A DNA stretch of 6,521 nucleotides from a virus (Duplodnaviria > Heunggongvirae > Uroviricota > Caudoviricetes). Position 1 is the first letter of the stretch. Every line of letters starts with the position of its first letter. The notes under the pieces were generated by a model. That model had not been told where the DNA came from. It searched no databases and saw only the letters and a program-made list of their open reading frames with translations. A program made the translations under genes and the position numbers. Location of the stretch: the IMG/VR virus record IMGVR_UViG_2534681674_000007, one strand, 5' to 3'. Positions 50 through 5,428 of the stretch are shown here, in pieces.

Positions 50-232
50 TCACCTTGTTTTCCTCGCACGATGTCTTAGCCACCGGATATCCCACAGATG
101 AGCCGTGTAGTTGAAGGTTTTTACGTCAGATTCTTTTGGGATTGGCTTGCGTTTATTTCTGGAGCGTTTCGTTGGAAGGTATTTGCAGTTTTCGCAGATG
201 ATGTCGGTGATACTTCTTCGCTGTCGCCTCAT
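50..232 (-). CDS. ninE: NinE-like protein (60 aa)
   Basis: Translation from internal Met ([23 protein letters not shown]...[16 protein letters not shown]) matches my recollection of lambda NinE. ATG at 232..230 overlaps the upstream methyltransferase stop (229..231) in an ATGA coupling motif. The ORF-track start at 322 would overlap the upstream gene by 90 nt and is not preferred. Confidence 0.7.
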
Positions 233-756
233 GCCGCCCTTCTGACGCCCTGCCCGATCGCCATCAATGCCGCTTTGGATACGGTAGTAAACATCCGTCG
301 AGGACTGATGAACGGTCGCCAAATCAGCAGCATGGAGCCTTTGCTGTTTCCCTTCTTCTCCAGCCCCGTCGATGGTTCGATAAAATTAATCCGTCCATCA
401 GTGATAATGCGAACTTCGTCGACACTCTCCAGAGCCTTGCTGAACCATCCGACTGACATATCCTCTGGCACAAGCATCACTACCGTCTGTCGCTGTTGTA
501 TGCACTGCTCAGCGGCTTTTTCCACCCACGGCCTGATATTGCTGTACGGTGGGTTATTCCAGATTGCCCCGTGGCTTATCCACTCAGAATTTAGCGCGTC
601 GTCGGCCTCAGTTAGCCAGTGAGCACACAGAGCATTTTTGTCGCTCGCTGCCGAATCCAGCCAGAATCCAAACTCAATATCCAGTGCATCAAAAAGCCAA
701 AGCGGCGTTTGCCAGCAGTCCTTGTCGTGTGCTGGCGTATTTGATTTGATAGTCAT
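229..756 (-). CDS. phage DNA N6-adenine methyltransferase (Dam-like, orphan MTase)
   Basis: Translation [26 protein letters not shown]...WNNPPYS... carries the NPPY catalytic motif and the DxxCWQTP N-terminal motif of phage Dam-family MTases. ATG at 756..754 overlaps the NinB stop (ATGA). Position between ninB and ninE is typical of lambdoid/Stx-type phages. Confidence 0.85.
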
Positions 757-1196
757 GCTGCCCGATCTCCCCATCGCGCTTTCCATTCGAGAGCCAGTCG
801 AGCTTCGTCTGACCACTTAACGCCACGCTCTGTACCGAATGCCTGTATAAGCTCTAATAGCTCCGCAAATTCGCTTACACGCATCCTGCTGGTTGACTGG
901 CCTATTACCACAAAGCCATTCCCGGCAAGGTTAGGAACAACGTCCTGCTGCTTTAATGCTGCGGTAAACACACACTTCCAGCTTTCTGCATCCAGCCAGC
1001 GACCATGCCATTCAACCTGACGAGAGACGTCACCTAAGCAGGCCCATAGCTTCCTGTTTTGGTCTAAGCTGCGGTTGCGTTCCTGAATGGTTACTACGAT
1101 TGGTTTGGTTGGGTCTGGAAGAATTTGCTGGATAGCTTGAATGGCGTTCTGCTGATGGATGGGGCTTCTTAGTTCAAACGTTAGTTTCCTCACCAT
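753..1196 (-). CDS. ninB: NinB (Orf-family recombination mediator)
   Basis: 147-aa translation (MVRKLTFELRSPIHQQNAIQAIQQILPDPTKPIVVTIQERNRSLDQNRKLWACLGDVSRQVEWHGRW...) is near-identical to lambda NinB as I recall it. Strong SD (AGGAG, 5-nt spacer) upstream of ATG 1196. Confidence 0.9.
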   Translation of the reverse strand: MVRKLTFELRSPIHQQNAIQAIQQILPDPTKPIVVTIQERNRSLDQNRKLWACLGDVSRQVEWHGRWLDAESWKCVFTAALKQQDVVPNLAGNGFVVIGQSTSRMRVSEFAELLELIQAFGTERGVKWSDEARLALEWKARWGDRAA

Positions 1197-1338
1197 TTAC
1201 GCTCCTGTAATCGTCAAGTGCAGCTGCAATAGTCCCTATCTGGTCATGGTCTTGCCCGATAATCTCATTTACGTTTTCATCTTCTTCCACACCGAAAAAG
1301 AATCGCAGGGCTAACATGATTTCTTCGTATGCGCTCAT
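1174..1338 (-). CDS. small acidic hypothetical protein (54 aa, ~13 D/E vs 2 K/R)
   Basis: Not in the ORF track (<60 aa). ATG at 1338..1336 is preceded by AGGAG with a 5-nt spacer; translates MSAYEEIMLALRFFFGVEEDENVNEIIGQDHDQIGTIAAALDDYRSVNGEETNV; stop TGA at 1176..1174. Starts 2 nt after the stop of the upstream 87-aa ORF and overlaps the ninB start by 23 nt. Confidence 0.4.
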   Translation of the reverse strand: MSAYEEIMLALRFFFGVEEDENVNEIIGQDHDQIGTIAAALDDYRSVNGEETNV

Positions 1339-1340
1339 AC

Positions 1341-1604
1341 TCACTCCTTCACTTTGACTCCAGCAGTGCGGATGGCCTCTACATCGCTTTCGTATTGTGA
1401 TTCTGCACCTGTGTCATAGCCAATGTGATAATCACCGGGAAGTGGGCCTTTCTTTGGCTTTTGCAGCTCAATTTCAAAAGCTGCTCGCGATGCCTGCCAC
1501 GCTTGCCAATACATCTCAACCATATTGGCGTATATTTTATTTTTAGGATCACATCCGGTGTAATTTTCAAACCATTCTTCAAACTGCTTTCTTGATTCGT
1601 CCAT
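1341..1604 (-). CDS. hypothetical phage protein (87 aa)
   Basis: Open frame with SD-like GAGGG 8 nt upstream of ATG 1604; tightly packed in the operon between the helicase and ninB. No family recognised from sequence. Confidence 0.5.
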   Translation of the reverse strand: MDESRKQFEEWFENYTGCDPKNKIYANMVEMYWQAWQASRAAFEIELQKPKKGPLPGDYHIGYDTGAESQYESDVEAIRTAGVKVKE

Positions 1605-1900: not shown

Positions 1901-3277
1901 TCATACGTCAGCCCCTTGTGCATATCGTCTGCCACGTGCAGCGGGTGCATTTGATGTTGTGCAAATCTGTCTGGCTTCATCCTGGTCACACGCAACAAAG
2001 TGTCCGTTGCAGAACCGCTGGTAAACCGTACCAAGCGAGCCAAAACGGTTTTTCGTCACGATGATTTCAGCAAATGGCGCGGCGCTACTGTTCTCGTCAT
2101 ATACCGCTTCCCGATAGAGCATGATGATTGAGTCTGCGTCCTGCTCAATGCTTCCTGAATCACGCAAATCTGCGTTTGTCGGGCGTTTATTTGGTCGCTT
2201 CTCAACATCGCGCGAAAGCTGACTCAGGGAGATAACAGGCGTTTTCAGGTCTTTCGCCATCGCCTTCAGGCTTCCGGAGATGTGAGCAATTGCAAGGTCG
2301 TTGCGGTCTGCTTTCGGCTTCTCAATCAGGCCAAGATAATCCGCCATGATGAGTGACAGGTTTGGATTTTCCTGTTTGTGCCGTTCTGCGATTGAGCGTA
2401 TTTCTTCGACCGATAACCGCGATGCATCGACTACCCATACATCCAAATCTGCAAGCTGACTCATGCCGTTAGCAACACGCGCCCAGCCTTCGTCATCCAT
2501 CGATGCAGGATTTCGCAGCACGCTAACCGACATCCTCCCGGCGTTGGCAATGCTCCGCTCTGCAATCTGCAATGCGCTCATTTCCATTGAGAAAATCAAT
2601 ACTCCGCGCCGGACGTCAGAACCAGGAATAACGCGGCTTGCAACACCTTCGGCAATCTTCAGCGCCAGTTCGGTTTTCCCCATACCAGGACGAGCGGCGA
2701 TAATCACCAGGTCTTCCGCGTTCATCCCTCCGGTGATAGCGTCAAGTTCTTCGATTCCGGTCTTCAGGGTATCGGACTCTTCTCCGTTCCTCAGACGCCT
2801 GTCAAGCGTGTCAGTGTAGTCAGTAATGATTTCCCCTAACCGTACAGGTTTAACCTCGTCACTGGGCTTTCTGATGGCTGAAAGACGCTTTACAAGCTCA
2901 TCCATCGCCTGACTCGATGCGTCGATGGTTCCGCTCTGAATTGGTTCACGCATTTCATCCATGATTTCCAGCACCAGACGGCGGTGATAGTTATCCGCGA
3001 CCATTCCGGCATATCCCTTCAGGTTTGCGGCGCTCGGGCAGTTTTTGCTGGTCATCAGGATTGACGTGAAATGCTCCTCTCCGCACGCCTCGGCAACCAT
3101 CAGCGCGTCGATTATGTTTCTGTTTCGCGCCTGCTTGCGGATAACCTCGAAGGCTTTCCGGTAGAGCGGAATTGAAAACGCTTCCGGCTCCAGCGTTGCA
3201 AGAACGTCACTGGCGGTTGGAGTTAATCCACCAATCAGCAGGCCACCGATAACGCTCGCTTCGATATCCTGTCTCAT
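1901..3277 (-). CDS. replicative DNA helicase, DnaB family (phage P22 gene 12-like)
   Basis: 458-aa translation has DnaB hallmarks: N-terminal [13 protein letters not shown], Walker [26 protein letters not shown], and C-terminal [36 protein letters not shown] at 3277..3275 overlaps the upstream gene stop (ATGA); SD GGGGGA upstream. Confidence 0.92.
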
Positions 3278-3846
3278 GCAATCCCCCTGTCTGCAAACTT
3301 CCCTTCCCGTACTCCCGTTAACGAATCTTCCCTCAGCAGGTAATCAAAATCTGCCGTCCAGCCAGTGTCGTTGTCTCCGAAGTAAAACGGCTTGGCCTGA
3401 TGCACAAACGCCCTGACATACGCTCTGAAACCGTCCACGTTTGGCGTTTTCAGTTGTGGGATGATTTTCTTCAGGCGGCGTTTGCGTTTCTCGTTGACCG
3501 CAACAGCGTGTGGCAGTCTGTCACCGACTTCGGTGTTGTAGGCGTTCAGGAAGGATTCGTAGTCGATTCGTTCTGCCTTGCGACGTTCAGGTTTAACCTG
3601 CCCATCGCCTCCCCCATTGGGGGGTAGGGGGGTATTATTTATATTCTTGTTAATACCTTCTTGTTCATGATGTGCGGTTGTTTGTGCGGCTTCATGTGCG
3701 CTTTCATGTGCGGCATGTGCGCTGAAAGCCGCGCCATTACTGTCTTCGTCATGTGCGGCATCATGTGCGGTTGTTTGTGCGGCTTCATGTGCGGGTAAAT
3801 TGTCCATTTTTTGAGCATATTCATGGTAATTTGTGATGGTTATCAC
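3274..3846 (-). CDS. replication initiation protein, lambda O / P22 gp18-like, N-terminally truncated at the IS junction (linker plus C-terminal domain only)
   Basis: ORF opens with GTG at 3846..3844 immediately adjacent to the IS end; the in-frame stop upstream lies inside the IS terminus. The 5' third encodes AH[E/D]AA-type repeats, then an Asn/Gly/Pro-rich linker, then a C-terminal domain (..[25 protein letters not shown]..) resembling phage replication initiator C-termini. Sits immediately upstream of and translationally coupled to the helicase. The N-terminal iteron-binding domain is absent. Confidence 0.6.
3666..3795. repeat. iteron-like tandem array: about 9 copies of (C)ATGTGCG(G) at roughly 12-bp phasing, including an exact 31-bp direct repeat (3670..3700 and 3763..3793)
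   Basis: ATGTGCG at 3670, 3694, 3706, 3715, 3751, 3763, 3787 and TTGTGCG at 3683, 3776. ATGTGCGGTTGTTTGTGCGGCTTCATGTGCG is repeated exactly 93 bp apart. Lies inside the O-like gene and is followed (in the direction of O transcription) by an AT-rich tract at 3633..3655. Confidence 0.6.
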
Positions 3847-3888
3847 TGAACCGCCCCGGGTTTCCTGGAGAGTATTTTATCTGTGAAC

Positions 3889-4776
3889 TCAGGCTGCCAG
3901 ATCATTATTTCCGATGGAAGCATAATAAGCTTTTTCTGCTTCTGCCGGAGGAATATGGCCCAGCCTTTCCAGCAATCGTCGATTGTTATACCAGTCCACC
4001 CACGTTAGTGTGGCCAGTTCCACTTCTGTCCGGTTTTTCCAGCTATTACGGTGTATTACCTCCGCTTTGTAAAGACCATTGATGCTCTCAGCCATCGCGT
4101 TGTCATACGAGTCGCCAGTACTCCCTGTTGATGCCAGTAATCCGGCTTCCTTAAGCCGCTGCGTGTAGGCCAGCGATACATACTGAGAACCTTTATCACT
4201 GTGATGGATTGTGCCGGACGGCCGACGGGCCCACAACGCCTGCTCCAGTGCATCCAGCACGAATGTCGTTTCCATAGACGATGAGACTCGCCACCCCACG
4301 ATACATCCGGCAAACACATCAATGATGAACGCCACATAGACGAAGCCCTGCCATGTGCTGACGTAAGTAAAATCAGCCACCCACAGCTGGTCAGGACGTT
4401 CTGCCACGAACTGACGGTTTACGCGGTCGCCTGCGGAAACGGCTTTCCGGCTGACGGTAGTACGGACCTTTTTACCCCGGAGAACACCGGCAAGTCCCAT
4501 AACCGCCATGAGGCGCGCCACTGTACATCTGGCCACCCTGATACCTTCGCGTAACAACTGGCGCCAGACTTTACGCACACCGTACACCTGATGATTTTCA
4601 TCGTATACGCGCTGTATCTCTCTCTTCAGCCAGTCATCGTGCTGCGCACGGGCACTGCGTTTATCCGGATGATGTCGCTGTTGCTGACAATGGTAATACG
4701 TTGACGGGGCAATATGCAGTTCGCTGCATACCGGTCCGACCCCGTACTGCTCACGCAGCTTATCCAGCAGCGGCAT
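3889..4776 (-). CDS. IS629-like transposase OrfB (DDE catalytic domain, 295 aa)
   Basis: Contains the DDE triad context (..LWVADFTYV.., ..HHSDKGSQYVS.., ..DNAMAESINGLYKAE..) typical of IS3-family integrase-fold transposases. In -1 frame relative to orfA, with overlap at 4776. Confidence 0.9.
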   Translation of the reverse strand: MPLLDKLREQYGVGPVCSELHIAPSTYYHCQQQRHHPDKRSARAQHDDWLKREIQRVYDENHQVYGVRKVWRQLLREGIRVARCTVARLMAVMGLAGVLRGKKVRTTVSRKAVSAGDRVNRQFVAERPDQLWVADFTYVSTWQGFVYVAFIIDVFAGCIVGWRVSSSMETTFVLDALEQALWARRPSGTIHHSDKGSQYVSLAYTQRLKEAGLLASTGSTGDSYDNAMAESINGLYKAEVIHRNSWKNRTEVELATLTWVDWYNNRRLLERLGHIPPAEAEKAYYASIGNNDLAA

Positions 4777-5102
4777 TATTTTTTCCAGAGGCGGTCGAAC
4801 TCCGCCTTCGCAAAATAAGCGGAAGCCTGGCGAAGGATATCGTTACTGCGGCGCAGTTCACGATTTTCACGTTCCAGCTCTTTCAGACGCTGACGTTCAG
4901 CGGTGGTGAGTCCACCATCACCACTCCCGGTATCCCGCTCACGCTGACGAACCCACACACGCAGAGTCTCTGGTGTACAGCCAATCTTTGGGGCAATGGA
5001 ACAAATTGCCGCCCATTGTGAGTCATATTCGCCCTGACTTTCCAGAACCATACGAATCGCCCGCTGACGGACTTCGGGGGAAAAACGAGTATTTTTAGTC
5101 AT
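4776..5102 (-). CDS. IS629-like transposase OrfA (HTH DNA-binding subunit, 108 aa)
   Basis: [51 protein letters not shown]... with a leucine-zipper-like C-terminus ([30 protein letters not shown]), typical of IS3-family OrfA. Ends in AAA AAA TAA overlapping the orfB ATG. Confidence 0.9.
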
Positions 5103-5293
5103 CCTGTTTACCTCTTTCTCAGGGAGTTTAGTCTCCAGGATTTCCGGGGCGGTTCATTACCGATATCGATACATCAGGAATATTTGATTCAGATGATATG
5201 ACTATCAAAGCCGCCTGAGCGCGGCTTTACCGCATACCAATAATGCTTCACGAGAGGCATTTTCGTTATGCAATCAAATATAAGGAGTTACCC

Positions 5294-5428
5294 ATGATGC
5301 ACTTTCAGCTCGCGGGTAGCGGCGTCATGTCCGCTTTCTACCCGCACGAATCTGAATTATCACGCCGAGTTAAACAATTAATCAGAGCAGCAAAGAAACA
5401 ACTGGAGGCGTTATGCGCAATGAAATAG
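5294..5428 (+). CDS. small hypothetical protein (44 aa)
   Basis: ATG 5294 is preceded by TAAGGAG with a 7-nt spacer; translates MMHFQLAGSGVMSAFYPHESELSRRVKQLIRAAKKQLEALCAMK. The ORF-track upstream start at 5243 has no SD. Confidence 0.4.
   Translation: MMHFQLAGSGVMSAFYPHESELSRRVKQLIRAAKKQLEALCAMK

Follow-up and report, generated by a model that had tools for sequence, protein, structure and literature searches.

IS629 is known to inactivate genes and to generate adjacent deletions that range from a few nucleotides to more than 40 kb, and one described class of these deletions keeps the IS intact (PMC9330008; PMC9943667). The ends of IS3-family elements such as IS911, IS2, and IS3 can switch on adjacent genes from promoters that point outward or are hybrid (PMC9330008). 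In phages P22 and lambda, the origin of replication is annotated within the initiator gene, and the replication module of each provides a reference for the locus described here. Lambda O binds the iterons through its N-terminal domain and contacts the partner protein through its C-terminal domain, the latter as known from lambda genetics and biochemistry. The window analyzed in this study is the entire 6,521-bp contig AEZJ02000010.1 from the draft assembly of E. coli 97.0246, in which an IS629-type element abuts the remnant of an initiator gene. The original prediction was that the terminus of the IS gives this remnant a GTG start and a possible Shine-Dalgarno (SD) sequence. We consider it likely that an IS629-type deletion junction in a lambdoid prophage that carries a P22-type replication module has left a promoterless, 5'-truncated initiator pseudogene, probably without meaningful expression of the remnant. 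The locus is a textbook case of IS629 deletion and of ordinary prophage decay, with nothing beyond the known kinds of system.

We identified a complete IS629/IS1203-type insertion sequence of the IS3 family at 3847..5156 on the minus strand (1310 bp), based on its inverted repeats, its Pfam matches, and its ALIL frameshift pseudoknot. Its two ORFs, orfA (HTH; 5102..4776, minus strand) and orfB (the DDE 'rve' transposase; 4776..3889, minus strand), overlap and are joined via a programmed -1 frameshift; the Pfam matches are HTH_Tnp_1, HTH_21, and rve. The pseudoknot (Rfam) lies at 4705..4821 with a score of 120 bits, and a 404-aa frameshifted orfA-orfB product is called in the annotation. The left (5116..5156) and right (3847..3887) terminal inverted repeats, both 41 nt long and given on the minus strand, are imperfect, being 76% complementary (TGAACCGCCCCGG...CCGGGGCGGTTCA), and the right one reads outward as ...CCCGGGGCGGTTCA. 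The element starts with TG and finishes with CA, and the terminal 13 nt, TGAACCGCCCCGG, are identical at both ends. Full-length copies with 97–99.9% identity are the top listed matches among 3,387 matching plasmid records, the right-end part was matched in 4,134 of the 5,426 complete E. coli genomes, and chromosomal copies share 99.1% identity with the terminal 215 bp at the right end (window 3836..4050). The matching E. coli copies are annotated merely as 'IS3 family transposase' and some related ones are labelled IS1203; judging by the terminal repeat, the isoform is probably IS629. The element is a complete IS3-family member of the IS629/IS1203 group. No target-site duplication surrounds it, with TAA on one side and GTG on the other where a 3-bp duplication is expected for the group; a sister copy of the same IS type in a related strain has the 3-bp duplication CAA/CAA. 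The 5,930-bp deletion described below accounts for the missing duplication, which does not speak against the identity of the IS.

Both flanks of the IS are 100% identical to strain 2013C-4974 (NZ_CP027587.1), where they keep the same order and orientation and lie 5,930 bp apart. Mapping onto NZ_CP027587.1 puts the left edge of the deletion within a DUF2528 gene that belongs to the early-left operon; the final 62 nt of this gene (5157..5218, plus strand) abut the left end of the IS. The missing interval contains the greater part of the DUF2528 gene, N, a gene for a Ser/Thr kinase, the gene of the LexA-family repressor cI, cro, and cII, as well as a hypothetical gene, two further genes, a small ORF, and initiator codons 1–125. 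By analogy with the layout of P22 and lambda, the early promoters pL, pR, and pRM would have been lost along with this interval. The IS629-type element would accordingly mark the junction of a deletion that removed N, cI, cro, cII, the promoters, and initiator codons 1–125, and the event was probably an IS- or IEE-type adjacent deletion, an intramolecular transposition, or a recombination of two IS copies. No microhomology was visible at the deletion ends.

The arrangement resembles the IS629 deletions, including IEE-promoted ones, of EHEC/STEC prophages in several respects: a full-length IS629-type element lies beside a multi-kb deletion in a lambdoid Stx-type prophage, the IS is without a target-site duplication, and related strains carry the same IS type elsewhere in the prophage, namely as an insertion into the helicase gene of 2013C-4974 and as two copies near N in OkiPb01713. 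In the latter strain, the same replication module is located upstream of Q and stx1a in the Stx1a prophage. Unlike in those deletions, the present junction was found in no other genome searched. As an alternative, two IS copies in the same orientation, situated at the DUF2528 and the initiator sites, respectively, might have been collapsed during assembly, in which case the 5.9 kb would never have been deleted. The 6.5-kb draft contig does cross a multicopy 1310-bp repeat, a related strain has up to two IS copies in the same prophage, and a collapse would likewise give no target-site duplication; but the flanks are collinear and oriented as for a simple deletion, and deletions adjacent to IS629 are well documented (PMC9330008; PMC9943667), so that we regard such an artefact as improbable. 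If it were true, the 3847/3846 junction and the disruption of the initiator would stand, and the claim of a deletion would change.

On the minus strand, the junction reads ...ccaggaaaCCCGGGGCGGttca/GTGataaccatcac... and, over a longer stretch, ...CTCTCCAGGAAACCCGGGGCGGTTCA/GTGATAACCATCACAAATTACCATGAATATGCTCAAAAAATGGAC..., where the slash stands between 3847 and 3846 and the IS ends at 3847 with CA. The first triplet beyond the IS is the GTG at 3846..3844 (minus strand), the nominal start of the ORF; in the frame of the remnant, an in-frame TAA at 3879..3877 is followed by this GTG as the earliest start-type codon. The original prediction was correct in all of its coordinates (the IS end at 3847, the GTG at 3846..3844 as the first triplet outside, and the ORF at 3846..3274), and its headline statement that the IS supplies the GTG was not borne out. 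Two intact initiator genes aligned to the DNA read ...AAA GGT CGT GTG ATC ACC ATC ACA..., with variation among intact genes after the GTG (...GGT CGT GTG ATC/ATA ACC...), and the prophage of 2013C-4974, whose flanks are identical, reads ...GGTCGT/GTGATAACCATCAC at the breakpoint. Because the intact genes align with GTG at the same place, the triplet is identified as the initiator's own Val codon, number 126 in the 315-codon form and 106 in the 295-aa RefSeq form; on this alignment, the GTG belongs to the initiator gene itself, without contribution from the IS. The structure of the locus and the origin of its GTG are both demonstrated. A native internal start at Val126 in the intact phages was also considered and was rejected, as the upstream AAAGGT abuts the GTG with an aligned spacing of ~0.

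The apparent start codon is the native Val126 that came by chance to lie in frame after the breakpoint. Start-type codons (ATG, GTG, and TTG) account for 11 of the 315 in-frame codons of the initiator, and a random breakpoint would fall directly before one with P = 0.012 and within 0–6 nt of one with P = 0.075. A breakpoint beside a start codon is unremarkable, since E. coli harbors thousands of copies of this IS type and such a coincidence is expected somewhere. At the outward ends of sister IS copies, an adjacent start codon was seen in one of seven cases (TTG, in L005; judged by eye), which is compatible with chance. The exact 49-nt junction gave 0 matches in the GTDB representative genomes, and megablast searches with 401-nt and 116-nt queries returned no junction-spanning record among the 5,426 complete E. 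coli genomes, in which the IS half alone was matched. As it is absent from the searched genome sets, the junction is strain-specific, without sign of retention.

The 5'-truncated replication-initiator gene, of the P22 gene 18/O type, occupies 3274..3846 on the minus strand and keeps 190 of the 315 codons, from the GTG to the TGA at 3276..3274. In GenBank, it is entered as the hypothetical protein EIG94508.1, called from the GTG at 3846. The remnant shows 96.8–97.9% amino-acid identity to the final 190 residues of full-length phage replication proteins, and its residues 3–190 align with positions 110–295 of the 297 positions in PHROG 345 ('replication initiation O-like') with E = 4e-72. Searched against Pfam, NCBIfam, and PDB sequences, the 190-aa remnant gave no match, and it was recognized by PHROGs alone. 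In an intact relative, the Pfam domain Phage_rep_O (PF04492), which represents the origin-binding N-terminal domain, covers residues 20–132, and the cut at 125/126 lies almost exactly at the border of this domain. The PHROG 345 alignment and the Pfam boundary together uphold the earlier proposal that the ORF comprises the linker of an O-type initiator together with its C-terminal domain. Judged by these profile matches, the remnant is a fragment of an O-type initiator and would not be a functional member of the family.

Comparisons of the remnant with P22 gp18 and lambda O indicate that the name 'O-like' is appropriate for the architecture and that the family is the P22 gene 18/12 type. The last 124 aa of the remnant show 59% identity to the C-terminus of P22 gp18, while residues 1–61 are unaligned. 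In the case of lambda O, we found no detectable similarity to the C-terminal domain of the remnant, the best E value being 0.022 over 37 aa of the linker. The two systems share a two-domain logic, the intact relative has a Phage_rep_O domain, and iterons with an AT-rich region lie inside the gene in both; in contrast, the C-terminal domains are dissimilar, and the partner here is a DnaB-type helicase instead of the P-type loader of lambda. The P22 replication module is similar in having an internal ori in the initiator gene, a gene 12 helicase whose counterpart here is 90% identical, and the same 4-nt stop/start overlap between genes 18 and 12. It differs in that the remnant has lost the N-terminal domain for origin binding and in that the iteron sequence and the linker are not the same.

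Nine iteron-like repeats with the motif SCGCACAWNM are arranged in two clusters with a 12-nt spacing at 3668..3794 (minus strand), where Tandem Repeats Finder (TRF) reports a period of 12. The motif count exceeds the 0.6 expected, and none of 200 shuffles reached nine. The iterons encode approximately residues 15–60 of the remnant, in the linker. They are followed by an AT-rich stretch at 3630..3667 (minus strand), with a GC fraction of 0.33–0.38 compared with 0.5–0.6 in the flanks, which is presumed from the example of ori lambda to be the unwinding region. By analogy with the annotated origins of P22 and lambda, the iterons and the AT-rich stretch constitute an ori within the initiator gene. 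The origin is wholly kept, whereas its presumed binding domain is lost.

An SD-like run, GGGGCGGU, is located at 3850..3857 on the minus strand, within the terminal repeat of the IS and 3–4 nt before the GTG; the minus-strand stretch CCCGGGGCGG at 3860..3851 also lies inside the IS. With the 16S rRNA tail, 5'-ACCUCCUUA-3', GGGGCGGU forms a duplex of -7.2 kcal/mol that consists of 7 bp around a C·U mismatch. Among the 644 start-like triplets of the window, 4.3% attain this energy or a better one, and the spacing of 3–4 nt is short yet usable. The real genes in the window have SD energies from -6.1 to -9.4 kcal/mol, similar to that of GGGGCGGU; an SD complementarity that equals several real genes is a point against a pseudogene. 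The SD-like pairing belongs to the IS terminus as a constant feature and not to the 3847/3846 junction. Because the G-run is present at both IS ends, in the terminal repeat that binds the transposase, its presence is explained by transposition, and the apparent SD is this transposase-binding repeat.

In the predicted minimum-free-energy (MFE) fold, the G-run pairs with an upstream CUCC, and the GTG is sequestered in a native hairpin, GUGAU-AACC-AUCAC (3833..3846, minus strand), whose sequence also occurs in the intact prophage. The SD region and the GTG start are predicted to be unpaired with probabilities of 0.25 and 0.20, respectively. In the two models used, opening the GTG site costs 10.5–11.9 kcal/mol and opening the helicase site 3.4–8.5 kcal/mol; of the seven sites compared in the first model, the GTG site is the most costly to open. 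We also calculated a crude sum in the style of the RBS calculator, which adds the SD energy, the start codon, a spacing penalty, and the unfolding. The GTG obtained a total of +4.8 kcal/mol by this score, which is rough and also misranks NinB (+6.5); relative to all start-like triplets, this total lies at the 13th percentile, and it trails the helicase site by about 12 kcal/mol and equals the total of the ATG at 3807..3805. The weak SD that had been proposed is therefore real as far as its pairing goes (-7.2 kcal/mol, within the top 4%), but predicted stems hide both this SD-like run and the GTG, and poor initiation at the GTG is expected for that reason.

The in-frame ATG at 3807..3805 has a best SD duplex of +0.4 kcal/mol, and the earlier remark that it lacks an SD holds. 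Translation of the remnant from this ATG, or by re-initiation after the orfB stop that lies 42 nt upstream of the GTG, seems very unlikely. The ATG is situated in an open A-rich region (upstream probability of being unpaired, 0.76) and its crude total is the same as that of the GTG, and the orfB stop (3891..3889), which shares the frame of the GTG, lies just 42 nt away from it. Against this stand the lack of an SD at the ATG, the two stops between orfB and the remnant (TGA at 3891..3889 and TAA at 3879..3877), and the rare frameshift that the orfB product requires. The shared frame also raised a fusion of the transposase to the initiator by stop read-through, which was rejected as the same two stops intervene.

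With pR gone, a transcript across the junction would have to arise by read-out that begins in the IS or farther away, and any expression of the remnant would depend on weak read-out transcription from the IS. A consensus scan found no outward promoter in the IS; its single promoter-like site, at 5208..5179, is directed into the IS, and the counts are within the shuffle expectation. A relaxed scan gave one 8/12 site, CTGGCA-18-AATACT at 3900..3871, compared with 1.3 expected. No terminator-like site was seen on the minus strand between the orfB stop (3889) and the IS end; since an intrinsic terminator is not visible, read-out from the transposase gene is possible, an observation that speaks against the pseudogene reading. 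The RNA of the first ~230 nt of the remnant is C-rich and G-poor, with a C/G ratio of 2.0–2.7 compared with 1.65 at the 95th percentile of the window, and such a C-rich leader, if poorly translated, would be a plausible entry site for Rho. We found no literature report specific to an outward promoter, transcription, or read-through of IS629. The activation of genes by IS911, IS2, and IS3 is similar in that an IS end acts as the source of expression signals for the adjacent gene. However, the known cases provide promoter elements (a -35 box or the promoter in full) rather than a ribosome-binding site, and the present IS629-type end is without a convincing outward -35/-10 pair.

These results bear on the mechanism of the original prediction, in which read-out from the IS, the SD-like run of the IS, and the GTG at 3846 would yield a free linker and C-terminal fragment, coupled to the helicase. 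Such a fragment could sustain the expression of the helicase, or it could be dominant-negative and titrate the P22-type helicase from co-resident phages. We consider this mechanism unlikely, although it draws on several features of the locus: the strength of the SD-like duplex at a usable spacing, an ORF that is in frame with an intact helicase and the ATGA overlap behind it, a minus strand free of terminator-like sites after orfB, and the 8/12 site at 3900..3871, which would begin a transcript ~20 nt ahead of the GTG. The cut near the end of the N-terminal domain would also allow the fragment to fold, and a possible target exists, as Stx2a phages carry an initiator that is 96.8–97.9% identical to the remnant. 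On the other hand, base pairing is predicted for the SD-like run as well as for the GTG, the crude score merely equals that of an SD-less ATG and lies far below that of the helicase site, the promoter-like site is at chance level with pR deleted, the G-run is accounted for as a terminal repeat present at both ends, and the junction is unique to one strain.

The gene downstream of the remnant encodes an intact DnaB-family replicative helicase of 458 aa at 1901..3277 on the minus strand (Pfam DnaB and DnaB_C; 90% identity to P22 gp12). Its ATG (3277..3275) overlaps the TGA of the remnant (3276..3274) in an ATGA at 3274..3277 on the minus strand, and the same 4-nt overlap is found in P22 genes 18/12 and in the intact prophages, which makes the overlap native. 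An SD of its own, AGGGGGA, precedes the helicase gene at 3282..3288 on the minus strand, with -9.4 kcal/mol and a spacing of 4, and the helicase site has the best crude total of the window (-7.2 kcal/mol). Because of this good SD, translation of the helicase should proceed without the need of coupling to the remnant. The translational coupling that had been suggested is thus right with respect to the overlap, which is real and native, but the helicase does not depend on it.

A broader possibility is that the IS629 terminus CCGGGGCGGUUCA, identical at both ends, serves as a portable ribosome-binding site at truncated genes, that a helicase-binding gp18 C-terminal fragment made here interferes with or modulates the replication of co-resident Stx phages, and that the orphan ori is fired in trans by those phages. 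We regard this combination as highly improbable. If IS629 termini did restart truncated genes in general, the locus would be more interesting; if the fragment or the orphan origin did interact with co-resident Stx2a phages, it could influence the replication of Stx phages and toxin output. Stx2a phages are possible partners because they have nearly the same replication module.

Under the preferred reading, a deletion junction that left an initiator pseudogene, the event is routine IS629 erosion of an STEC prophage, a kind of event that is already known. The prophage should be non-inducible and unable to replicate alone, because the repressor, N, the early promoters, and a working initiator are missing. 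In the annotation, the 190-aa 'hypothetical protein' EIG94508.1 is better treated as a truncated initiator pseudogene. As an observation on the other side, the ORF of the remnant and the helicase gene are both undamaged, and the event is probably too recent for visible decay.

The 5,930-bp deletion was located by aligning the flanks of the complete IS629/IS1203-type element (abutting it at 5157 and 3846 of the window) with the related strain 2013C-4974, in which 1801..7730 of the homologous stretch lies between them. The genes lost with this segment are N, a Ser/Thr kinase gene, cI, cro, and cII, and, going by the layout of P22 and lambda, the early promoters would have been lost as well. The loss of cI, N, cro, and cII, together with that of the early promoters, thus leaves this prophage without immunity and without early transcription. 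The same module is included in the Stx1a prophage of strain OkiPb01713 (15283..16509 of its stretch).

The truncated initiator gene keeps a complete ori (3630..3794, - strand), consisting of nine SCGCACAWNM repeats with a 12-nt spacing and an AT-rich stretch; the origin-binding domain of the initiator is deleted. The ori in the initiator remnant is an orphan ori. The initiator of the Stx2a phages is 96.8-97.9% identical, and we infer that these phages might fire the orphan ori in trans.

The RNA of 3615..3848 (- strand) is C-rich and G-poor: two 78-nt windows have C/G ratios of 2.0 and 2.67, compared with 1.65 at the 95th percentile of the contig. If untranslated, this stretch looks like a Rho-utilisation region, which would add polarity on the downstream helicase gene. 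Two weak sigma-70-like sites are present on the - strand: TTGATA-18-AATATT (9/12; 5179..5208), directly outside the left end of the IS and directed into it, and CTGGCA-18-AATACT (8/12; 3871..3900), within the right end and directed outward. Both occur at a frequency expected by chance. The IS terminal repeat makes a terminator-like hairpin on the + strand (3856..3868), CCGGGTTTCCTGG followed by AGAGTATTTT, which would act on transcripts that run into the IS from the side of the initiator gene rather than on read-out from the IS into the remnant. The remnant and the transposase orfB share a reading frame, separated only by TGA (3891..3889) and TAA (3879..3877) within 3877..3891 of the - strand. 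This common frame looks like a coincidence, because a fusion would require two read-through events.

In related strains, elements of the same IS type occupy other positions in this prophage, a hot spot for IS insertion. In 2013C-4974, one copy lies within the helicase gene (9163..10472), flanked by an imperfect GTG/GTT pair, and in OkiPb01713 two copies are situated near N (106..1415 and 2173..3482), one with a CAA duplication and the other without a duplication and with truncated genes on its flanks.

In the ORF list, cIII begins at ATG 5243 (61 aa), but both the SD sequence (AAGGAG, -8.8 kcal/mol) and the gene as called favour ATG 5294 (44 aa; 5294..5428, + strand). Like the GTG "start" of the remnant at 3846, the 61-aa version is an artefact of ORF finding. 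The final five bases of the contig (6517..6521) are unaligned to an otherwise 100% identical relative, the match beginning at query base 6, and are probably a contig-end artefact.
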